Positions 3,046 through 11,597 of a stretch of 11,597 nucleotides of DNA are shown here, piece after piece. The first letter of the stretch is position 1, and each line of letters begins with the position of its first letter. The stretch is taken from the UHGV virus genome UHGV-0331195; one strand, written 5' to 3'. This DNA comes from a virus. Under the pieces are notes generated by a model. That model had not been told where the DNA came from. It was given only the letters and a program-made list of their open reading frames with translations, and searched no databases. A program made the position numbers and the translations under genes.

Positions 3046-3603
3046 ATGGTTGCTGTAAATCATATACCACACCTTGTACACACACAAACGGCCTTTGTGT
3101 GGCGTTTTCTGGCCCTGAATATCGGAGAAAAAAACCGCTTGATCGCCACCAGCAAAAATGGCTATGATTCCCGCGCACCTCATAAAACGGGTGTCGGGAT
3201 TAGCCTCCTGAAAACAACTGAAGCGCACAGCACGCGCCCCGCGTGTTTTTTTGTGCCGCATAGTCACACCTTATCAATGGTGGGCTGTACGGGGGCGGAG
3301 CAATCCGCGCCGGTTTCTTCAGTGTCCGGTAAGGCTAACCCTGTACAGTCCGCCACCAGCGAAATTAGCCTTTTGCGTGGCGGTTATCTTAACCACACTG
3401 AGGAGGCTGCCAACATGGCTACTATCCCTACCCTTGTACATTCTCAAACCGCATTTATCTGGCGCTTTATCATCTTTGGCGCGTCAGAATCTCAAATCAT
3501 CCACGTAACCGCCTGGACGGAACGCGAAGCGCGTAGCCGTTGCCCGTCCGGTTGTATTGCGGTATTCGCCGCCCGTATTCGTCAGGGGGTGTGCCATGCC
3601 TGA
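3046..3603 (+). CDS. Icd-like (host cell-division inhibitor family) ORF with in-frame tandem duplication; start uncertain (2971, 3046 or 3415)
   Basis: Single frame 2971-3603 with no stop. AGGAG RBS before ATG 3046. N-terminal motif LVHTQTAFVWRF recurs as LVHSQTAFIWRF at the second copy; degenerate TEAHSTRPAC versus TEREARSRCP. Confidence 0.4.
   Translation: MVAVNHIPHLVHTQTAFVWRFLALNIGEKNRLIATSKNGYDSRAPHKTGVGISLLKTTEAHSTRPACFFVPHSHTLSMVGCTGAEQSAPVSSVSGKANPVQSATSEISLLRGGYLNHTEEAANMATIPTLVHSQTAFIWRFIIFGASESQIIHVTAWTEREARSRCPSGCIAVFAARIRQGVCHA
3415..3603 (+). CDS. Icd-like protein, second and better conserved copy, 62 aa
   Basis: Strong SD GAGGAGG (3400-3406) before ATG 3415. MATIPTLVHSQTAFIWRFIIFGAS...TEREARSRCP...FAARIRQGVCHA fits my recollection of Icd-like small proteins in P4-like/PICI elements. 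Confidence 0.5.
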   Translation: MATIPTLVHSQTAFIWRFIIFGASESQIIHVTAWTEREARSRCPSGCIAVFAARIRQGVCHA

Positions 3604-3922: not shown

Positions 3923-4222
3923 ATGAGAACGTATTTATCTGGCTTTACTGCCAGCGGCCCCGCTCGGCCTGAAATCCGCCCCGGAGATATTTTCAGAGAT
4001 AACTACGGTGGCGTTGTTGAGATTAAAGGCGTGGCAGAACGGCGCATTACCTACCGCCGTGAAGGCTACGAATATGATTGCGTGATGCCTGTTTATCAGT
4101 TCCGGCGTGATTTTTCTCTGGTACAGGCAGCGCCCCGCAGTAAACCAACCAGCAGGGAGAAAGCACGCGCCAATATTCAGGAAATAAGAAAGATGTTGAA
4201 TGTATTCAGGGGTAAAAAATGA
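3923..4222 (+). CDS. Small protein, possible DUF4222 family
   Basis: 99 aa; PGDIFRDNYGGVVEIKGVAERRITYRREGYEYDC resembles the DUF4222 pattern I recall from P4-like prophages. Stop overlaps the primase start (ATGA). Confidence 0.45.
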   Translation: MRTYLSGFTASGPARPEIRPGDIFRDNYGGVVEIKGVAERRITYRREGYEYDCVMPVYQFRRDFSLVQAAPRSKPTSREKARANIQEIRKMLNVFRGKK

Positions 4223-5967
4223 AACTGGCACCGAACGTAAAAAAACAGCCACGCGGAATAAAACACAAAGACACAGAGGTAATTATCTTTGCGGGTAGTG
4301 ATGCCTGGTCACACGCGGAACAATGGCAGGAGCAGGATGGCCCCGCATCCGGCGATAATGTGCCGCCTGTGTGGCTTGGGCCAAATCAGCTTGCCGAACT
4401 TGATGCACTGAAAATTGTTCCGGATGGAAAAAAACGCGTAAGGCTGTACCAGGCCGGAGAACTGGATTTGGTGGAGACCAAAAAGATTGGTCAGAAGCTG
4501 GCGGCGGCAGATATTCAGGACGCAAATTTTTACCCCGAAGGAATGCACGTCCAGAAGTGTGAAAACTGGCGGCGCTATCTGAATGCTGAGCGTGAAAATA
4601 TTGCCGCAGGGCTTACCATGCCGGAGCAGAAAAATACGCAACTGGCACAAATGGCAGACAGTGAGCGCGCGCAGCTGCTTGCCGAGCGCTTTGATGGCGT
4701 TTGTGTACATCCGGAAAGTGAAATCGTTCACGTATGGCGCGGCGGGGTATGGTGTCCGATCAGCACAATGGAGCTGAGCCGCGAAATGGTGGCGATCTAT
4801 TCAGAGCACAGGGCCACTTTCAGCAAACGCGTGATCAATAACGCCGTTGAAGCGTTAAAAGTTATTGCCGAACCAATGGGGGAGCCGTCCGGCGATTTGC
4901 TGCCGTTCGCCAATGGTGCGCTTGACCTGAAAACGGGGGAATTTTCCCCGCACACGCCGGAGAACTGGATCACCACGCACAACGGCATTGAGTACACGCC
5001 ACCAGCACCTGGGGAGAACATCCGCGATAACGCGCCAAACTTTCATAAATGGCTTGATCACGCAGCCGGAAAAGACCAGCGCAAGATGATGCGTATATGT
5101 GCCGCGCTGTACATGATTATGGCGAACCGGTACGACTGGCAGATGTTTATTGAGGCCACCGGAGACGGCGGGAGCGGTAAAAGTACATTCACACACATCG
5201 CCAGCCTTCTGGCAGGGAAACAGAACACGGTAAGCGCTGAAATGACATCGCTTGATGATGCTGGTGGACGTGCGCAGGTTGTCGGGAGTCGTCTTATCGT
5301 CCTGGCTGACCAGACGAAATATACAGGCGAAGGAACGGGCATCAAGAAAATCACGGGCGGCGACCCCGTGGAAATTAACCCGAAATACGAAAAGCGTTTC
5401 ACGGCTGTAATCAGGGCGGTGGTGCTGGCGACCAACAATAACCCGATGATATTCACCGAACGGGCCGGAGGTGTGGCACGTCGTCGCGTGATTTTCCGCT
5501 TCGACAATATCGTCAGTGAGGCCGAAAAAGACAGGGAGCTACCGGAAAAGATTGCGGCTGAAATCCCTGTCATTATCCGCCGATTGCTGGCGAACTTTAC
5601 CGACCCTGAGAAGGCACGGGCTTTACTACTGGAACAGCGTGACGGTGATGAAGCACTGGCAATAAAGCAACAGACGGATCCGGTTATTGAGTTTTGCCAG
5701 TTCCTGAATTTTCTGGAGGAAGCGCGCGGCCTGATGATGGGTGGCGGTGGCGATTCAGTGAAGTACACGACCAGAAACAGCCTTTACCGCGTCTATCTGG
5801 CGTTTATGGCATACGCAGGCAGGAGCAAACCGCTAAACGTAAATGACTTTGGCAAGGCTATGAAGCCAGCCGCGAAAGTTTACGGACATGAATATATTAC
5901 GCGGAAAGTTAAGGGAGTAACGCAGACTAACGCAATAACAACAGACGATTGCGACGCGTTTTTATAA
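4219..5967 (+). CDS. Replication protein: P4-alpha-like primase / SF3 helicase
   Basis: 582 aa; Walker A GDGGSGKST (aa 315-323, nt 5161-5187) and Walker B-like RLIVLAD, consistent with the phage/plasmid primase P4-family C-terminal domain. Followed by an iteron origin. Confidence 0.75.
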   Translation: MKLAPNVKKQPRGIKHKDTEVIIFAGSDAWSHAEQWQEQDGPASGDNVPPVWLGPNQLAELDALKIVPDGKKRVRLYQAGELDLVETKKIGQKLAAADIQDANFYPEGMHVQKCENWRRYLNAERENIAAGLTMPEQKNTQLAQMADSERAQLLAERFDGVCVHPESEIVHVWRGGVWCPISTMELSREMVAIYSEHRATFSKRVINNAVEALKVIAEPMGEPSGDLLPFANGALDLKTGEFSPHTPENWITTHNGIEYTPPAPGENIRDNAPNFHKWLDHAAGKDQRKMMRICAALYMIMANRYDWQMFIEATGDGGSGKSTFTHIASLLAGKQNTVSAEMTSLDDAGGRAQVVGSRLIVLADQTKYTGEGTGIKKITGGDPVEINPKYEKRFTAVIRAVVLATNNNPMIFTERAGGVARRRVIFRFDNIVSEAEKDRELPEKIAAEIPVIIRRLLANFTDPEKARALLLEQRDGDEALAIKQQTDPVIEFCQFLNFLEEARGLMMGGGGDSVKYTTRNSLYRVYLAFMAYAGRSKPLNVNDFGKAMKPAAKVYGHEYITRKVKGVTQTNAITTDDCDAFL

Positions 5968-5982
5968 TTTTTTGCAATGGCT

Positions 5983-6207
5983 GTCTACCCTGTCTACCTG
6001 AGTAAAGAAAAATACATTTAATTCAGTATATTAACTTAGGTAGACAGCCTTTTTTCACTGTCTACCTACTATCTACCCTCTCTACCTGATTTTACCTGAA
6101 TCAGACAGGGAGGTAGATACGGGGTAGATAGTGGATAAAAGCACTCTACCCCGCTGAAAGCCGCGCCATTACTGGCATGAGAGCCAGTAAGGTAGATAAG
6201 GTAGACA
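5983..6207. repeat. Origin of replication: iteron cluster with at least 12 copies of (T)GTCTACC / GGTAGA(C/T)A in both orientations around an AT-rich spacer (6001-6038)
   Basis: Direct copies at 5983-5990, 5991-5998, 6059-6066, 6071-6077, 6082-6088, 6144-6150; inverted copies at 6039-6046, 6113-6120, 6123-6130, 6191-6198, 6200-6207. Resembles P4 ori/crr octamer iterons bound by alpha. Confidence 0.7.
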
Positions 6208-6255: not shown

Positions 6256-6519
6256 ATGCGCACATCAGGAAAACTTAATAATCAGAAGAAGCAGCATAAC
6301 CGCGCCATTGACCTTACAGAGCACTGGCTGAGAGTGGCGATAAAAATCATCGACCGCAACACGGGGGAAGGATACGCGAAAGCACATCCCGAACTGATAA
6401 GCGCATTCATGACCACGGCGGCGGCAAACTTTGCCACGCTGACAGAACGGGAGATTGCCGAAGCGGAACAGGTAACAACCATCAACGTAAAAACCGGAGA
6501 GTCAGGCGATGATACATGA
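6256..6519 (+). CDS. Hypothetical protein, 87 aa
   Basis: ORF with GAGGGGG upstream; stop overlaps the next gene's start. Confidence 0.45.
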   Translation: MRTSGKLNNQKKQHNRAIDLTEHWLRVAIKIIDRNTGEGYAKAHPELISAFMTTAAANFATLTEREIAEAEQVTTINVKTGESGDDT

Positions 6520-6781
6520 CCGCATAGCGGAGGAACTCGAGGCGAAAGGATTTTACCGGAGGGCGGCGGCGCGATGGGGTGAAGTCATGCAGCTGGTGGA
6601 GACAGACAAGGAACGGCATCAGGTTACGATGCGACGGCTGGAATGTTCCAGGAAGGCACAGAGGCCACCGGAGCCGCCGGATAACTTCGGAGACCTGAGA
6701 AAGGCAGTCGATCGCACTTATGCTGAAATGGGTATAGATGGTGTAAGCGATGAAATATGGCGTAATTACCCAGGCAGCTAA
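6509..6781 (+). CDS. PerC-like transcriptional regulator (tentative)
   Basis: 90 aa; N-terminus IAEELEAKGFYRRAAARWGEVM resembles the PerC-family signature as I recall it. Translationally coupled to the upstream ORF. Confidence 0.45.
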   Translation: MIHDRIAEELEAKGFYRRAAARWGEVMQLVETDKERHQVTMRRLECSRKAQRPPEPPDNFGDLRKAVDRTYAEMGIDGVSDEIWRNYPGS

Positions 6782-6787
6782 TCAACA

Positions 6788-6809
6788 GCCGGAGTAATCC
6801 GGCTTTTTT
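6788..6809 (+). terminator. Rho-independent terminator GCCGGAGtaaTCCGGC then T6
   Basis: Hairpin plus TTTTTT. Nearly identical to the terminator at 9064-9086. Confidence 0.65.
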
Positions 6810-6821
6810 GTACCCAAAAAA

Positions 6822-6891: not shown

Positions 6892-6990
6892 ATGATCGGG
6901 ATCATCATTTCATAATTTGCAACACAACTCAACATCATTGCATAAAATGCAATCATGATTATAATCATAACTGGATGAACATCCAGTTAT
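6892..6990 (+). promoter_or_regulatory. Head-operon control region: consensus -10 TATAAT (6959-6964) with TTGCAT -35 candidate (6938-6943), plus four palindromes
   Basis: Palindromes ATGATC-GG-GATCAT (6892-6905), TTGCAT-AAA-ATGCAA (6938-6952), ATGATTATAATCAT (6955-6968), ATAACTGGATG-AA-CATCCAGTTAT (6967-6990); the last sits at the expected transcription start. Confidence 0.5.
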
Positions 6991-7021
6991 GATTTTTTAA
7001 GTCAAAGAGGAATTTCTTACT

Positions 7022-7228
7022 ATGGCTGAAGAGAAAAAAGGCGGTGTTTCGGTGTACATAAGCCCCGACATCGTGAAGGCGCTCAAGGAACGCCACCAGC
7101 AGAACGTAAAAGCAGGCATTGCGGCAGGACTTGATCCGCTGGCGATGGTTGAGCCGTCAACAGGCTGGCAGGTACGCGCCTATTTACGCGCGGCGCTGGG
7201 TATGAATCAGGTTCACGGGGGTGAATAA
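7022..7228 (+). CDS. Small hypothetical protein, first gene of head operon
   Basis: 68 aa, RBS AAGAGGAA, stop overlaps the capsid gene start (TAATG). No similarity to lambda gpW, which has the same length, that I can see. Confidence 0.5.
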   Translation: MAEEKKGGVSVYISPDIVKALKERHQQNVKAGIAAGLDPLAMVEPSTGWQVRAYLRAALGMNQVHGGE

Positions 7229-8283
7229 TGACAGTAAAAGCAATAGCACTTAACACTAACCAGCTTTTTGCGTACCTGAATCGCGAGGATATTGCGGAAT
7301 TTAAATTCAGTCCGCTGTTTACCGCGCTGTTTTTCCCGAACGTGGCGACATTCAACACACAGGACATCATGTTAGATAACCTGGATATTGAAGAAGTCAC
7401 TATGTCGGCGTTTTGTTCGCCTATGGTGGGTAGCCAGGTTCAGCGCGATAAAGGGTACGAAACAAGCATTATTCGCCCTGGCTACACGAAGCCAAAACAC
7501 GAAATCGATCCATTAAAAACAATAATGCGCATGGCTGGAGAAGATCCAGCACAGCTTAACGACCCTACCTACCGCCGTATGCGCCTGATTACTGGCAACA
7601 TGCGCCGCCAGATAAACGCCATTAAAGCGCGCGTGGAATGGCTGGCGGTAAATGCGGTAACGACCGGAAAAAACATCATTGAGGGCGAAGGCATAGAGCG
7701 CTATGAAATCGACTGGAAGATACCGGAAAAAAACATCATAGAGCAGGCCGACGGTAAAAAATGGTCAGAGCAGGACAAAGACATACACGACCCAATCTAT
7801 GACATTGAGCTATACGCAGATCAGGCAGGTTGCCCCGCAAACGTCATGATTATGGGCGTTGATGTATGGCGCATGTTACGCAGCTTTAAAAAATTCCGTG
7901 AACTGTACGATCTCTCCCGTGGTTCAGAATCCGCCGCAGAGCTGGCATGTAAAAACCTGGGCGAAGTGGTGAGCTTTAAAGGCTATCTTGGTGATCTGGC
8001 CCTTATCGTCTATTCCGGCAAATACACTGACAGCGACGGCACAGAAAAATATTTCCTTGAGCCTGATTTGCTGGTCCTGGGCAACACCAACAATAAAGGG
8101 CTGGTGGCCTATGGTGCGATTATGGAACAGGAAGCGGTAAGAACGGGCGCAACGCAAAACATGTTTTACCCGAAAAACTGGATTGAGGACGGCGATCCGG
8201 CGATTGAGTACGTGCAGACGCACAGCGCACCGCAGCCGGTTCCGGCAGATATTCGCAAATTTGTTACCGTCAAAATTGGTTAA
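7228..8283 (+). CDS. Major capsid protein, phage lambda gpE family (divergent)
   Basis: 351 aa. Shares with recalled lambda gpE: FKF(S/D)PLF...LFF, (T/R)PGY(V/T)KPKHE, EDP..L.DP.YRR.R.I..NMR, WS..DK...DP..DIE.YA, RSFK, RGS.S, LG..VS(F/Y)KG..GD.A.(I/V)VYSG.Y, LVLGNT...GL..YG, .YPKNW...GDPA.E, SAP. Estimated 35-45% identity. Confidence 0.85.
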   Translation: MTVKAIALNTNQLFAYLNREDIAEFKFSPLFTALFFPNVATFNTQDIMLDNLDIEEVTMSAFCSPMVGSQVQRDKGYETSIIRPGYTKPKHEIDPLKTIMRMAGEDPAQLNDPTYRRMRLITGNMRRQINAIKARVEWLAVNAVTTGKNIIEGEGIERYEIDWKIPEKNIIEQADGKKWSEQDKDIHDPIYDIELYADQAGCPANVMIMGVDVWRMLRSFKKFRELYDLSRGSESAAELACKNLGEVVSFKGYLGDLALIVYSGKYTDSDGTEKYFLEPDLLVLGNTNNKGLVAYGAIMEQEAVRTGATQNMFYPKNWIEDGDPAIEYVQTHSAPQPVPADIRKFVTVKIG

Positions 8284-8295
8284 CGGGGGGATTCT

Positions 8296-8631
8296 ATGGA
8301 CACTCCATACATTGAGTTATTTGCAGGCAGTCAGCAGGTATCCACGACGCTGGTACATTTTGCCGCTGATGCTGGCGTTATTCAGGAATTTACCCCGCTG
8401 ATGCTGGCGGACAATGGCGAGTTTAAGCCGTGGGATGGTCAGGAATCTGGCAAGGCTGTTTATCTGACTTCGTACCCCGTGGACACGTCAAAGCAGAAAT
8501 CAGCACAGTGTTACAAGACGGGGATATTTAATATCGCCGCCGTAAACTGGCCTGAGAGCGCCGACACTGACGCGAAAAAATGCGCCGCCTTTGCGGGTTC
8601 TGGCGTATCCGTTCAGCCGCTGGCGCGATAA
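8296..8631 (+). CDS. Head decoration protein, lambda gpD family (divergent)
   Basis: 111 aa; TPLMLADNGEFKPWDG...YKTGIFN...VNWPESADTDAKKCAAFAG...SV parallels recalled gpD (TPLMLD...WDG...YKSGTF...VLWPEA..DETKKRTAFAG...SI). Gene order E then D is the reverse of lambda. Confidence 0.7.
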   Translation: MDTPYIELFAGSQQVSTTLVHFAADAGVIQEFTPLMLADNGEFKPWDGQESGKAVYLTSYPVDTSKQKSAQCYKTGIFNIAAVNWPESADTDAKKCAAFAGSGVSVQPLAR

Positions 8632-8643
8632 GCAGGGGAAACG

Positions 8644-9057
8644 ATGGCAACGAATGAAAGCATCATGGCGCTACCGCTGGCGAGTAAATTTAAAGCAGAA
8701 GCGCGGGCAATGGCTGACAGAGGTTTATCAACCTACGAGGCCGTATATCAACTCAACAAACTGGAAGAACAGGACAAGCCGCGCGCTGATGCGATTATGG
8801 CGCTTCATGAACATAACGACTATCAGCCGCTGTTACGTGCAATGGCAAACGTGCCATGTATTAGCGTCGATAATGCTCGTGAAATCCTGAACATGACCAT
8901 AGAGCAGGAGCGCCCAAAGGTTGCACCAGAGCTTACCGCAGCCTTTGAAAACTTTATGGACATGCACAGCCCGCAAGCCGTATCAGCTGGCATGGCGTAC
9001 GATGGCAGAAACCAGGGCGATGACGGCGACATCGATCGCATACTGAAAACCATCTGA
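8644..9057 (+). CDS. Hypothetical head-module protein, 137 aa, acidic C-terminus
   Basis: RBS GGGGA 5 nt upstream. No convincing similarity to lambda FI/FII/W from memory. Confidence 0.5.
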   Translation: MATNESIMALPLASKFKAEARAMADRGLSTYEAVYQLNKLEEQDKPRADAIMALHEHNDYQPLLRAMANVPCISVDNAREILNMTIEQERPKVAPELTAAFENFMDMHSPQAVSAGMAYDGRNQGDDGDIDRILKTI

Positions 9058-9063
9058 GACAAG

Positions 9064-9086
9064 GCCGGAGAAATCCGGCTTTTTTT
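9064..9086 (+). terminator. Rho-independent terminator GCCGGAGaaaTCCGGC then T7, immediately before cosQ
   Basis: Hairpin plus TTTTTTT; 22 of 23 nt identical to the terminator at 6788-6809. Confidence 0.65.
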
Positions 9087-9088
9087 AC

Positions 9089-9262
9089 GGGTCCTTTCCG
9101 GCATATGGACCCGTTACGGGGCGGCGACCTCGCGGTTTTTCGCTATTTATGAGCCTTTTCAGGGGGGTGGTGGTGGTTTTGTTGTTTGATCTATCTTTAT
9201 GAATGAAAAGGGAAAGATGCAAGCAATACACCAACCTGAAGCAGTAATTAAGTTGGTGTATT
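9089..9262 (+). other. cos site 1 (lambda-type): cosQ-like GGGTCCTTTCCGG (9089-9101), cosN 12-nt cohesive-end sequence GGGCGGCGACCT (9119-9130), divergent cosB region with hairpin AATACACCAAC/GTTGGTGTATT (9225-9262)
   Basis: CGTTACG|GGGCGGCGACCTCGCGG-TTTTCGCTATTTATGA matches my memory of the lambda right-end/left-end junction for about 35 nt, then diverges with no CGTTTCC-type R elements. Sits directly upstream of the Nu1-like gene, as in lambda. Confidence 0.75.
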
Positions 9263-9263
9263 A

Positions 9264-9806
9264 ATGAAATCTCATCTGATGAACAAAAAAAACATGGCGA
9301 AAAGCTGCCGTGTAAGTGCGACAGCGTTCGACAAGTGGGGAGTAACTCCCGTTGAGCGTAAAGGCCGTGAGGCGTTTTATGATGTTGCCAGCGTGATAGA
9401 AAATAGGGTTAACAATGCAATTAGCCAGCTTATAAACGACAAAGGCGAGATTGACGATGATGAACTTTTACGAGTCAGGATCAGATTACTGACAGCACAG
9501 GCAGAGGCGCAGGAACTTAAAAACGATCGCGATCGCGGTGACGTGATTGATACTGAGTTTTGCCTGTACGCGCTTTCAAAGCTGGCGAGTCAGATTTCAT
9601 CAATCATGGACAGCCTCCCGCTTACTATGCAAAGGAGCTTCCCACAGATTACCCCCGCCATGCTGGATAGGCTTAAAAGGGAAGTGGTTAAAGCCTGTAA
9701 TGCCAGTGCCAGAGTTGCCGACAACCTCCCACAGATACTGGCTGATTACTTGAAAGAAACAACCGGAAACGTACCGGAAAAGTTGCTACAGAAGAAAGGC
9801 GAGTAA
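9264..9806 (+). CDS. Terminase small subunit, lambda gpNu1 family; start uncertain (9264, 9279 or 9294)
   Basis: C-terminal two-thirds LLTAQAEAQELKNDRDRGDVIDTEFCLYALSKLASQISSIMDSLPLTMQRSFPQI...LDRLKREVVKACN closely parallels recalled Nu1 (LTRAQADAQELKNARDSAEVVETAFCTFVLSRIAGEIASILDGLPLSVQRRFPEL...FLKRDIIKAMN). N-terminal DNA-binding region is much more divergent. Confidence 0.8.
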   Translation: MKSHLMNKKNMAKSCRVSATAFDKWGVTPVERKGREAFYDVASVIENRVNNAISQLINDKGEIDDDELLRVRIRLLTAQAEAQELKNDRDRGDVIDTEFCLYALSKLASQISSIMDSLPLTMQRSFPQITPAMLDRLKREVVKACNASARVADNLPQILADYLKETTGNVPEKLLQKKGE

Positions 9807-9824
9807 CAGACGCGCAATTATTGA

Positions 9825-10030
9825 ACAAAACTGAGAAACGACATGAAAGCGTCATAAATCGCCATTTTAGATGATTACCGTGTCGTTTCTTTTTATTGTG
9901 TATCTATTTAAAAACAAATAGTTATGTTCGAGAAGTACCGACATGCTTTTTCCAGAAAAATTTTCATAAACAGATAAAAACCGCGAGGTCGCCGCCCCGT
10001 AACGGGCCATAATTCCAGGAAGGACCCGAC
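9825..10030 (-). other. cos site 2, inverted: cosQ-like (9998-10030), cosN GGGCGGCGACCT on minus strand (9986-9997), lambda-like cosB with R-type elements GAAACGACA (9835-9843) / TGTCGTTTC (9882-9890)
   Basis: The reverse complement of 9825-10030 aligns with the recalled lambda left end over about 170 nt (cosN, TTTATGAAAATTTT, CTTCT.G.ACATAACT..TGTTTTTA..TA, AAAAAGAAACGACA, TGTCGTTTC). 31 nt around cosN are identical to cos site 1 in inverted orientation. cosB abuts the terS stop tail-to-tail. Confidence 0.7.
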
Positions 10031-10061
10031 GACACCAGACTATCAGAACGATGGGGGCACA

Positions 10062-10343
10062 ATGACAGAAGCCGAAATACTGGGATTAATCCGCCGCGTT
10101 GCCGGAATCAGCCAGCAGGTTGACGAACAGGCCACGCAGCCGGACAGCGTGACCGCTGAAAATTATGCGCGTGTTGTTGCGGAGGTGATGCGCCGTGATG
10201 GTATAGAACTTAATGGCGTGGATATGCGCAACATACGAACCAGAGTTCTTGAGTTGCTGGCCTACCGTCGCCGCGTGGAGATGTATCGGGAGAAGGAGAA
10301 AATAACGTACCACTGGAAGAAGCCGGAGCGGTTGCGGCGGTAA
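10062..10343 (+). CDS. Hypothetical protein, 93 aa
   Basis: ORF with GGGGG 5 nt upstream of ATG; Arg-rich C-terminus. No family recognised. Confidence 0.45.
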   Translation: MTEAEILGLIRRVAGISQQVDEQATQPDSVTAENYARVVAEVMRRDGIELNGVDMRNIRTRVLELLAYRRRVEMYREKEKITYHWKKPERLRR

Positions 10344-10903
10344 CTGGTTGATATTCCCGACGGACCAAAAATGGGTGGCTACATCCCTCGCTTCTGAGGA
10401 CTGTTAACAAGCTGCCTGAAAGACAGTCACAAACTACGAAATTTTCGCAGTTTAATTAATGATCAGCTTAATCGCTAACCCGCTGATATTTTCGGAAACC
10501 TCAATTTGAGGAAGTCGGCGCGGTAACTCGCTGAACTTTAAGCAAAGCGCAAAATTGCGCTTGCTGAATAATCATTATGATTACGCAGATGATTAAGGAA
10601 TGACCGAAGGCGGAAATTCGCCTGTGGTTAATGGGGGAGTTGCAGATCTGCAACTCGACCATGAAACTACGGAAACTACCCGTAGTTTGGGTAGTAAGAG
10701 TAACACCCAGATTTTGGGGCTTACTCGTGATACCCAAATTTGGGGTATCGGTGGCAACCATAACGACTTTCGTTACGGTTGATGCTTTTACCCCATTGGT
10801 GGAGGCTGGGCGGCCTGCTGTGGGCTTTTCCACCATTGGTGGAAAGGTGCAGATCTGGATCATCATTACGGTGATCAAGGGTATGTAAAACCCACCAGCC
10901 TGA

Positions 10904-11146
10904 TTAACAGTTAACCGGAAAAAAAATCCGGCATGGGGGGGAGTGGTTAGCCACGAACAACGAATAAGCTGGACACCGCGCCCCCTCTCACGCAGAGAAA
11001 AAATTACCGTTTCGTAGTAGTTAACATGTTAACTGCCTGATGAAGCGTTGTTGTTGATTTTTTCTTTATGATTCATCTGGTTGCGTGCAAAAAATGTTAA
11101 CTACCTTTTTGGTAAAAATGTTAACAGGGCAGCGGTTAACATTAAC
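10904..11146. repeat. Cluster of GTTAAC-containing palindromes and direct repeats: TTAACAGTTAAC (10904-10915), AGTTAACATGTTAACT (11019-11034), AAAATGTTAAC x2 (11091-11102, 11114-11125), GGTTAA-CA-TTAACC (11133-11146)
   Basis: Seen in sequence. No ORF of convincing quality in this region. Candidate protein-binding array, function unknown. Confidence 0.4.
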
Positions 11147-11290
11147 CAGGCGTAAATCCCGATATGGTGATCCCCATATCGGGGAACATCCACCAGCTTA
11201 AAAACGAATGAGCGAAAAAAATCCAGGTAGAATTATGGAAGTCGCTAGGGCAATCGCCGTTTAAATTGTGTATTTTTTCAGCAAATTATT

Positions 11291-11313
11291 TTAGTTATAC
11301 GTTTGGTTATACG
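11291..11313. repeat. Integrase arm-type sites near attR: TTAGTTATACG (11291-11301) and TTGGTTATACG (11303-11313)
   Basis: Same 11-mer as at 262-284, about 60 bp from the attR core. Confidence 0.55.
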
Positions 11314-11374
11314 GTTTAAAAGTTGAATCGATAATATTGATTAAAATCATACTGTTACACGCTCAATTAAACTA

Positions 11375-11395
11375 CTCTCGTGGACCAAAAATCCC
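11375..11395 (+). other. attR core: degenerate direct repeat of the tRNA-Pro 3' end
   Basis: CTCTCGTGGACCAAAAATCCC versus tRNA 3' CTCTCGTGCCGACCAAATCGCCC (125-147); 8 + 7 contiguous identical bases. Confidence 0.5.
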
Positions 11396-11402
11396 AAGAA
11401 AA

Positions 11403-11428
11403 AACCAACCCTTACGGTTGGTTTTTTT
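11403..11428 (+). terminator. Rho-independent terminator AACCAACC-cttac-GGTTGGTT then T7; probably the original chromosomal tRNA terminator
   Basis: Hairpin plus T-run immediately right of attR. Confidence 0.55.
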
Positions 11429-11597
11429 ATATCTGCAATTAATTCGATAAACAGAGCGTGACACATCACAGCCTGTTTATTTTCTGTTATCAGAACGTCC
11501 AGACCACACCCGCCTGAGTATTCCACGGCGATTCTACCCCTGCGCCATTGCCATAGCTGACTGACAAATGACCGCTTAACGTCGGGGTAAACGATGA

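Follow-up and report, generated by a model that had tools for sequence, protein, structure and literature searches.

This work concerns a stretch of 11,597 nucleotides from the virus genome UHGV-0331195, further called the window (the whole stretch of DNA that was analysed), and in particular its region 7022-10343, which encodes homologs of the capsid, decoration and small terminase (TerS) proteins of phage lambda. With a probability of about 80%, we regard this region as the late helper-exploitation module of a complete 11.25-kb Type A Gram-negative phage-inducible chromosomal island (PICI) located at proL, a mosaic sibling of EcCICFT073 of which the DNA is packaged by a helper phage under the direction of an island-encoded TerS. 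EcCICFT073, which resides in E. coli CFT073, serves as the model for Gram-negative PICIs (Fillol-Salom et al. 2018, 2019). Helper-dependent induction, packaging, transfer and interference have been shown for this sibling, whereas the island in the window is known from its sequence. An earlier note on this DNA had recognized a satellite-like island with lambda-family head genes, and had suggested that it follows a strategy different from that of the known satellites by swapping only the shell and decoration proteins. The architecture itself has been known since 2018; what is new here is the identification of a scaffold-domain gene, the conservation and age of the shell genes, and a putative control region upstream of them.

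A complete island of the PICI type at proL

Along its entire length the window agrees at 99.7% with the genome of E. coli NCTC9112. It begins in the 3' flank of yejM/lapC, includes proL and reaches the start of yejO. In E. coli K-12, proL and yejO adjoin and constitute the empty site. In an alignment, the window tracks K-12 up to the 3' end of the tRNA (...GACCAAA), splits off at that point and rejoins at 11389, and therefore holds a complete island of 11.25 kb with a duplicated att core; both ends, which the earlier note had wanted compared to an island-free proL locus, are confirmed by this empty site. All features given below lie on the plus strand unless stated otherwise. The proL gene (tRNA-Pro(GGG), 63-139, found by ARAGORN and Rfam) provides at its 3' end the attL core CTCTCGTGCCGACCAAA (125-141), and attR (11291-11389) consists of two arm-type repeats (11291-11313) and a core with the sequence ...CTCTCGTGGACCAAA ending at 11389, where identity to K-12 resumes. 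The product of the integrase gene (330-1589) is a tyrosine integrase that includes an arm-binding domain (Pfam Phage_integrase, Phage_int_M and Arm-DNA-bind_3). The 11-nt sequence TTAGTTATACG occurs six times in the window compared to 0.17 copies expected by chance, with four copies, two direct and two inverted, at 262-315, which are probable arm-type integrase sites of attL. As the integrase carries an arm-binding domain, these repeats look like arm-type sites, and they are likely to be bound by the integrase as such. All six copies were observed to lie within about 180 bp of the att cores, four inside attL and two inside attR.

The earlier note had stated that portal, protease and the large terminase subunit (TerL) are absent from the window, and this holds: neither the list of open reading frames (ORFs) of the window nor the family scans contained a gene for portal, protease, TerL, connector, tail or lysis functions, proL and yejO delimit the island, and inspection of the flanks with their RefSeq annotation showed nothing phage-like past either island end. 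Its further statement that no ORF reaches the size of a portal or TerL was inaccurate in that the window contains a 582-aa ORF (4219-5967), this ORF encoding a P4/D5-type primase (Pfam, TIGR01613) and not a portal. The locus is a satellite and a complete island, not a prophage remnant.

SatelliteFinder defines the PICI core as an integrase, a regulator, a primase-replicase, a capsid morphogenesis gene and a small terminase, and lists portal, connector, tail and holin as forbidden components (PMC10085698). In the window, the integrase lies at one island end, co-oriented with the remaining island; a putative AlpA-like regulator follows; a primase-replicase gene is succeeded by what is, by sequence, a candidate origin; a gpE-type homolog represents the capsid-morphogenesis gene; and a small terminase is accompanied by cos sites. 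Tail, holin, portal and head-tail connector genes are all lacking, and the size, within the expected range of about 10-20 kb, and the own att site fit as well. With the putative regulator counted in, the window holds all five core components and none of the forbidden ones, which makes the island a Type A PICI. Its gene order equals the published Gram-negative PICI layout (PMC6092414).

TerS and the cos sites

The gene at 9264-9806, at the position where EcCICFT073 has RppA, encodes a full-length Nu1-type TerS of 180 aa (Pfam Phage_Nu1, 3.2e-23), of which residues 6-166 align by BLASTP to residues 3-180 of the 181-aa lambda Nu1 with 36% identity. The Nu1 homology reported in the earlier note is hereby established by a nearly end-to-end alignment. 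A phmmer search of TerS against the PDB matched neither Nu1 nor RppC, the relation to Nu1 coming from the direct BLASTP comparison. We also considered whether the protein could be an Rpp protein, the features taken into account being those of RppA, RppB and RppC (144-153 aa, a winged helix-turn-helix domain and a coiled-coil dimerization helix, no TerL-binding tail). This was ruled out, as BLASTP gave no similarity to RppA (E=3.4) and the protein aligns instead to full-length Nu1 including residues 100-181. Its best phage relative among 50,697 phage genomes is N15 gp1, at 44% identity.

According to literature quoted in PMC6739421, residues 100-181 of Nu1 bind gpA. Because TerS aligns with this gpA-binding part, we infer that it recruits the TerL of the helper and brings it to the island cosB, which would follow the TerS-swap logic of Staphylococcus aureus pathogenicity islands (SaPIs) rather than the adaptor logic of the Rpp proteins. 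Comparison of the TerS proteins of the islands showed a conserved C-terminal half and an N-terminal, DNA-binding half that has been swapped in one island, that of E. coli RM10466 (locus L010, 4782-5366): its N-terminal half resembles the TerS of a lambdoid prophage of CFT073 and its C-terminal half is of the island type. The chimera points to a shuffling of domains in which cos specificity is exchanged while the C-terminal half, which presumably binds TerL, stays fixed.

The terS gene is flanked by inverted arms of 72 nt (9088-9159 and 9957-10028) that are 82% complementary. The first cos site, cos1 (9088-9263), contains a cosQ-like stretch, an exact lambda cosN (GGGCGGCGACCT, 9119-9130) and then an island-specific cosB region; the second, cos2 (9957-10028), is inverted on the minus strand and again carries an exact cosN (9986-9997). 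In cos1 the sequence is lambda-like on both sides of cosN and diverges after that, the divergence beginning at what we take to be the place of the lambda R sites. In EcCICFT073 (locus L002) the cos sites at 2559-2570 and 3298-3309 bracket rppA in the same manner, so that in either island the segment between the inverted cos repeats, with terS or rppA, behaves like an exchangeable cassette. The inverted arrangement could allow inversion of the segment or packaging in either direction. Both cos sites of EcCICFT073 are functional, its cosB is not lambda-like either, and its transfer requires the helper terminase (PMC6092414).

The head cassette

Upstream of cos1, four genes, orf68, the gpE-like gene, the gpD-like gene and a Nu3-like gene, form a tightly spaced operon that is closed by a terminator-like hairpin (9064-9085, repeat family D1). 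The gene at 7228-8283, of the c1499 family, encodes a homolog of the gpE-type (HK97-fold) major capsid protein, as found by Pfam, PHROG, BLASTP and PDB matches. Residues 26-349 of its 351 residues match Pfam Phage_cap_E (E=2.7e-48), its identity to lambda gpE amounts to 43% across 328 aa, and among structures it matches PDB 3BQW, an almost identical protein with the title "putative capsid protein of prophage" (E=1.8e-228), and lambda gpE 7VI9 (5.9e-81). The closest capsid protein among 50,697 phage records is just 48% identical, and a scan of genome contigs with the capsid protein yielded no confirmed locus. The gene at 8296-8631, of the c1500 family, encodes a gpD/SHP-type head decoration protein homolog (Pfam HDPD, 1e-17) with 37% identity to lambda gpD and matches to the decoration-protein structures 1TD0, 1C5E and 7VII. 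The BLASTP checks and the family matches, in which Pfam and PHROG agree, therefore bear out the gpE and gpD homology claimed in the earlier note. That note had further counted three small ORFs without assignment in the region (7022-7228, 8644-9057 and 10062-10343). All three exist and are annotated as genes in RefSeq, and they gave no match in Pfam (E up to 10), in NCBIfam or, for the first and the third, in PADLOC; the second of them, however, could be assigned, as follows.

The 137-aa product of 8644-9057 (orf137, c1501 family) belongs to phrog_1999 and also matches phrog_53, "head maturation protease", at positions 494-567 of 583 (7.3e-10). By BLASTP, its residues 49-131 align to residues 416-493 of a 501-aa S49 (gpC-type) protease of a lambdoid prophage of CFT073, with 37% identity over 83 aa and 44.7 bits, compared to a maximum of 23.1 bits in 1000 shuffles of the C-terminus. 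The motif ..IMAL.E......L...A.VP...V..A..IL, common to both proteins, is the repeated motif that can also be seen in the lambda Nu3 region. When 1.84 billion representative proteins were searched with a profile of the orf137 family, a stand-alone protein of 195 aa was recovered (E=3.3e-8); its own matches in PHROG are "head scaffolding protein" (1.2e-34), "capsid assembly protein" (1.9e-30) and phrog_53. A tblastn search of orf137 against the CFT073 prophage had missed the gpC match that BLASTP found; the shuffles and the profile search decided for genuine homology. In lambda, the scaffolding protein Nu3 is the C-terminal 201 residues of gpC. Given its homology to the C-terminal domain common to gpC and Nu3, orf137 is on these alignments a Nu3/gpC scaffolding-domain homolog, of which about 85 residues are covered, and the island therefore encodes a truncated scaffold-domain protein, contrary to the statement in the earlier note that a scaffold is lacking. 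Some NCBI records label the orf137 family "head-tail connector protein", a name for which we found no support and which looks like a propagated misannotation, since the homology found is to the Nu3/gpC scaffolding domain.

The first gene of the operon, orf68 (7022-7228, c1498 family, phrog_3255), encodes a protein of 68 aa, and its stop overlaps the start of the capsid gene. Its AlphaFold2 (AF2) model shows a beta-hairpin and two helices, with a mean confidence score (pLDDT) of 74. By eye the protein had given the impression of a ribbon-helix-helix protein, an idea that was dropped as a Foldseek search of the model against the PDB gave no match below E=2.

Immediately upstream lies a putative control region of the head cassette (6937-6994), which consists of a perfect palindrome ATTGCATAAAATGCAAT (6937-6953), a perfect TATAAT (6958-6963) with just a weak -35 element, and a 14-bp hairpin followed by a T-run (6963-6994), the left arm of which begins at the -10 element. 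About 130 nt 5' of orf68 were kept in all eight islands compared, the most divergent one included. No DNA match to the control region was found among phages, and the palindrome has no second copy in the island and none in the helper prophage of CFT073; an origin as a Q-antitermination (pR'-like) region is for these reasons unsupported. The arrangement is consistent with a promoter that serves the cassette alone and is controlled by an activator or at an operator, with the hairpin probably insulating it from upstream read-through. With its beta-strand and helices, orf68 is one candidate regulator of this region.

Conservation and distribution of the cassette

Of 5426 complete E. coli genomes, 592 contain all four genes of the head cassette in intact and annotated form, with a nucleotide identity of about 91-100%, and the terS cassette is present (coverage of at least 80%) in 479 complete genomes. 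The head cassette co-occurs with primase-type or RepA-type replication modules, and it is located near phoQ, near mdtJ/ydgV, at proL, or within a prophage between head and tail genes. In a sample of seven islands, with synonymous divergence (dS) up to about 1, the median pairwise ratio of nonsynonymous to synonymous substitutions (dN/dS) was 0.11 for the capsid gene, 0.09 for the decoration gene, 0.31 for orf137, 0.25 for orf68 and 0.19 for orf93. The cassette ORFs are intact in all seven islands and equal in length, except for orf137, which counts 115 instead of 137 aa in the most divergent island. These values indicate that the shell genes are functional and under strong purifying selection. 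As the capsid protein is at most 48% and TerS at most 44% identical to any phage record, they represent long-standing satellite lineages rather than genes captured recently or remnants in decay.

In E. coli CFIAFB20180511, a prophage was seen to harbour a divergent copy of the island (locus L005, 1819-12034), which constitutes a helper-embedded PICI. This copy is flanked on one side by lambda-type head genes (FI, head-tail joining) and on the other by P2-type genes for baseplate and tail, contains the 115-aa version of the Nu3-like protein, and has a 146-aa ORF at the rppA/terS position.

Proposed role of the module and alternative explanations

In the mechanism that we propose, a lambdoid cos helper would induce the island, which would then excise and replicate from its own origin. 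TerS would bind the island-specific cosB via its diverged N-terminal domain and recruit the helper TerL directly via its C-terminal half, upon which helper TerL would cut the lambda-identical cosN and package concatemeric island DNA, by analogy with EcCICFT073 most likely into full-size heads built by the helper. The capsid, decoration and Nu3-like proteins would most likely join or modulate lambda-type procapsid assembly on the helper portal and protease. The shell, cement and mini-scaffold genes are most likely auxiliary, those of the sibling EcCICFT073 appearing dispensable for both transfer and lambda interference. Four island copies amount to 45.0 kb, about 93% of the lambda genome, a length that would fit cos-to-cos packaging into a full head. 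By our own volume scaling, a T=4 lambda-type head would accommodate roughly 17-21 kb, which neither 11.25 kb nor 22.5 kb fits neatly.

The earlier note had favoured another role for the shell genes, in which the gpE-, gpD- and Nu3-like proteins assemble on the portal and protease of the helper into an island-specific, possibly smaller capsid for the 11-kb genome. We consider this distinctly unlikely in view of the published experiments on EcCICFT073, in which the island DNA packaged together with lambda was phage-sized and a monomer band was absent, transfer titres of c1499 and c1500 deletion mutants equalled those of the parent, c1499 replacement did not lower transfer either, and a size-neutral marker was transferred better than a size-increasing one, as expected for multimers packaged cos to cos in full-size heads (PMC6092414). 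The length estimates given above point in the same direction, four island copies suiting a lambda head and a T=4 head suiting neither one copy nor two. Yet the shell, cement and scaffold-domain genes sit in one tight operon with its own conserved control region, the shell genes are under strong purifying selection, the capsid lineage, at most 48% identical to phage capsids, is old and satellite-specific, and SaPIbov5 Ccm and the PmCI172 capsid homolog, the latter together with small heads, offer precedents for such a capsid. Moreover, the marked EcCICFT073 islands of which the construction is described had either c1499 replaced by cat or tetA inserted at c1501 (PMC6092414). Since both markers lie inside the head cassette, the constructs behind the transfer data, and probably those behind the packaged-DNA data as well, were without an intact cassette, so that the intact cassette may never have been assayed and an island-specific shell may have been missed. 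That the intact orf68/gpE-like/gpD-like/Nu3-like cassette, with its natural helper, builds or joins an island-specific shell on the helper portal and protease is, on balance, unlikely but worth entertaining; if true, Type A PICIs would stand midway between classical and capsid-forming PICIs. It can also be observed that transfer from CFT073 was 25-100 times higher for the cat-marked island, with c1499 replaced, than for the island marked with tetA at c1501 (PMC6092414, Table 1).

The same proteins could alternatively serve in interference, co-assembling with the capsid assembly proteins of a phage or titrating them as a defence of both host and island. A Nu3-like protein that retains only the C-terminal domain common to gpC and Nu3 would suit such a competitor, interference functions are common in this PICI region, and SaPIbov5 Ccm strongly lowers helper titres. 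When the EcCICFT073 genes located after the origin were cloned singly, however, only c1503 (rppA) inhibited lambda and reduced its plaques, deletion of c1499 or c1500 neither relieved interference nor restored lambda plaques (PMC6092414), and no PADLOC defence family was matched by the ORFs tested, which included orf68 and orf93 and did not comprise the capsid, decoration and Nu3-like proteins. Altogether this makes a decoy function very unlikely. The chance that the locus is what is left of a degraded lambdoid prophage, with a few head genes retained by accident, as its homology to lambda E, D, Nu3 and Nu1 and a cosN identical to that of lambda might suggest, is practically negligible: the satellite backbone is present in full, attL and attR are intact, the gene order is E-D-Nu3' compared to Nu3-D-E in lambda, identity to any phage capsid protein stays below 50%, dN/dS is about 0.1, and 592 genomes carry this cassette in intact form, at several att sites. 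The view of the earlier note that the locus is a satellite, which a prophage remnant would have refuted, is hereby upheld, and its smaller-capsid idea is argued against by the phage-sized DNA and the deletions without effect in EcCICFT073.

Several points weigh against TerS-directed packaging of a Type A PICI into helper-built heads, as we propose it. Two TerS-encoding islands that were tested in 2018 showed poor or no transfer after mitomycin C treatment (PMC6092414). The statement on full-size heads is carried over from EcCICFT073 constructs with a disrupted head cassette and should be read accordingly as an analogy, the role given to the shell genes is a proposal, and the binding of TerS to TerL and to cosB is deduced from alignments. 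In addition, the assignment of the gene at 2086-2292 as an AlpA-like helix-turn-helix (HTH) regulator is weak: its match to Pfam Phage_AlpA (E=0.0028, 17.9 bits) lies under the curated cut-off of 21 bits, and RefSeq names it an HTH regulator.

At stake is the question whether classical Gram-negative PICIs confine themselves to taking over heads, or in addition remodel them or supply the shell. About one in nine complete E. coli genomes keeps this conserved set of capsid, decoration and mini-scaffold genes without a reported phenotype, and the answer bears on the evolution of capsid-forming PICIs and on the design of PICI-based delivery vehicles.

Other features of the island

The replication module (3923-5967) consists of a gene for a DUF4222 protein and the primase-helicase gene of the P4/D5 type (Pfam D5_N, DUF5906, Pox_D5 and DUF4222; TIGR01613). 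Directly 3' of the primase gene, CTGTCTACC-type iterons (5981-6087, repeat family D4) mark the probable origin of replication, at a location that agrees with that of the PICI origin described in PMC6092414. Further downstream, an 87-aa ORF and a gene for a PerC-family regulator (6256-6781; Pfam PerC, 7.8e-45) are followed by a terminator-like hairpin (6787-6810). Upstream of the replication module, at 3175-3360, genes for isrK (Rfam RF01394, 61.8 bits) and a C4 antisense RNA (RF01695, 75.4 bits) lie side by side, surrounded by fragments that RefSeq annotates as Icd-like and ash-family pseudogenes; this resembles a P1/P4-style antisense immunity region within a PICI.

Past cos2, orf93 (10062-10343, c1504 family, phrog_1561) encodes a 93-aa protein with more than 1000 relatives, almost all from E. 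coli among the 120 matches listed, and no phage homolog by tblastn; its AF2 model is poor (pLDDT 62). From 10400 to 11280, overlapping ORFs occur on both strands without a recognizable gene or family match, and the right end further shows a 20-nt direct repeat (10784-10843) and an AT-rich tail (36% GC over 11001-11500). The right end may be an emptied slot for accessory genes.

Comparison with known satellites and phages

With lambda, the island has in common a TerS 36% identical to Nu1, the domain motif of Nu3/C, homologs of D (37%) and E (43%), and an identical cosN with conserved adjacent sequence. It differs by the order of its head genes (E-D-Nu3' instead of Nu3-D-E), its diverged cosB, the presence of only a fragment of Nu3, and the absence of lambda genes A, W, B, C, FI and FII. 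P4-like satellites are characterized by a P2-type cos, Sid, Psu and Delta. A P4-like satellite is ruled out here, the cos being of the lambda type and no family match to Sid, Psu or Delta occurring among the scanned proteins; only a P4-family primase and a C4-type RNA are common to P4 and the window. The capsid-forming PICI EcCIEDL933 has a similar left half, with integrase, alpA and replication genes, and also its own capsid protein, but such islands additionally encode protease, portal, head-tail connectors, HNH, TerS and TerL and make their own small heads. As portal, protease, connector, HNH and TerL are absent from the ORFs and the flanks, the island is not a capsid-forming PICI.

Homologs of phage capsid proteins are known from other satellites, namely SaPIbov5 Ccm and the homolog of PmCI172, which goes along with small heads. 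Like these, the island encodes an HK97-fold capsid homolog in a satellite without portal or TerL. SaPIbov5 Ccm, however, is 23% identical to the helper capsid protein and redirects capsid size, whereas the capsid protein of the window is 43-48% identical to lambda-type ones; the island moreover adds a decoration protein and a scaffold fragment, and its sibling EcCICFT073 showed no size redirection.

The island does not follow a strategy of its own, as the earlier note had suggested, but has the canonical Type A PICI layout, in which a capsid gene is part of the definition, and its cassette is 93-98% identical in protein to c1498-c1501. A capsid gene is found in 21 of 29 reference Gram-negative PICIs (PMC10111431), and the 2018 description of EcCICFT073 already named c1499 a putative capsid protein and c1500 a head decoration protein (PMC6092414). 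TerS-encoding E. coli PICIs (IHE3034 and 18098 in PMC6092414, Nissle 1917, O103:H2 12009 and many O157:H7) likewise have the head cassette followed by a 180-aa TerS between cos sites. The TerS proteins of Nissle 1917 and O103:H2 12009 are 98-99% identical to that of the window, although these two islands have another att site and integrase and adjoin phoQ instead of proL.

EcCICFT073 shares with the island the order of modules, a size of about 11 kb and a pair of inverted lambda-type cos sites. Protein identities amount to 90.4% for the primase, 98.5% for c1498, 94.9% for c1499, 97.3% for c1500, 92.7% for c1501 and 84.9% for c1504, and to 98% and 83% for the 87-aa ORF and PerC, compared to 39% over 31 aa for the regulator at 2086-2292. 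The integrases are only 24% identical and EcCICFT073 is inserted between roxA and phoQ instead of at proL; the window is without a gene for a single-stranded DNA-binding protein (SSB), and where it has a full-length Nu1-type TerS, EcCICFT073 encodes the TerS-binding adaptor RppA. The high identity of cassette and primase next to a foreign integrase and terS therefore identifies the island of the window as a mosaic sibling of EcCICFT073.

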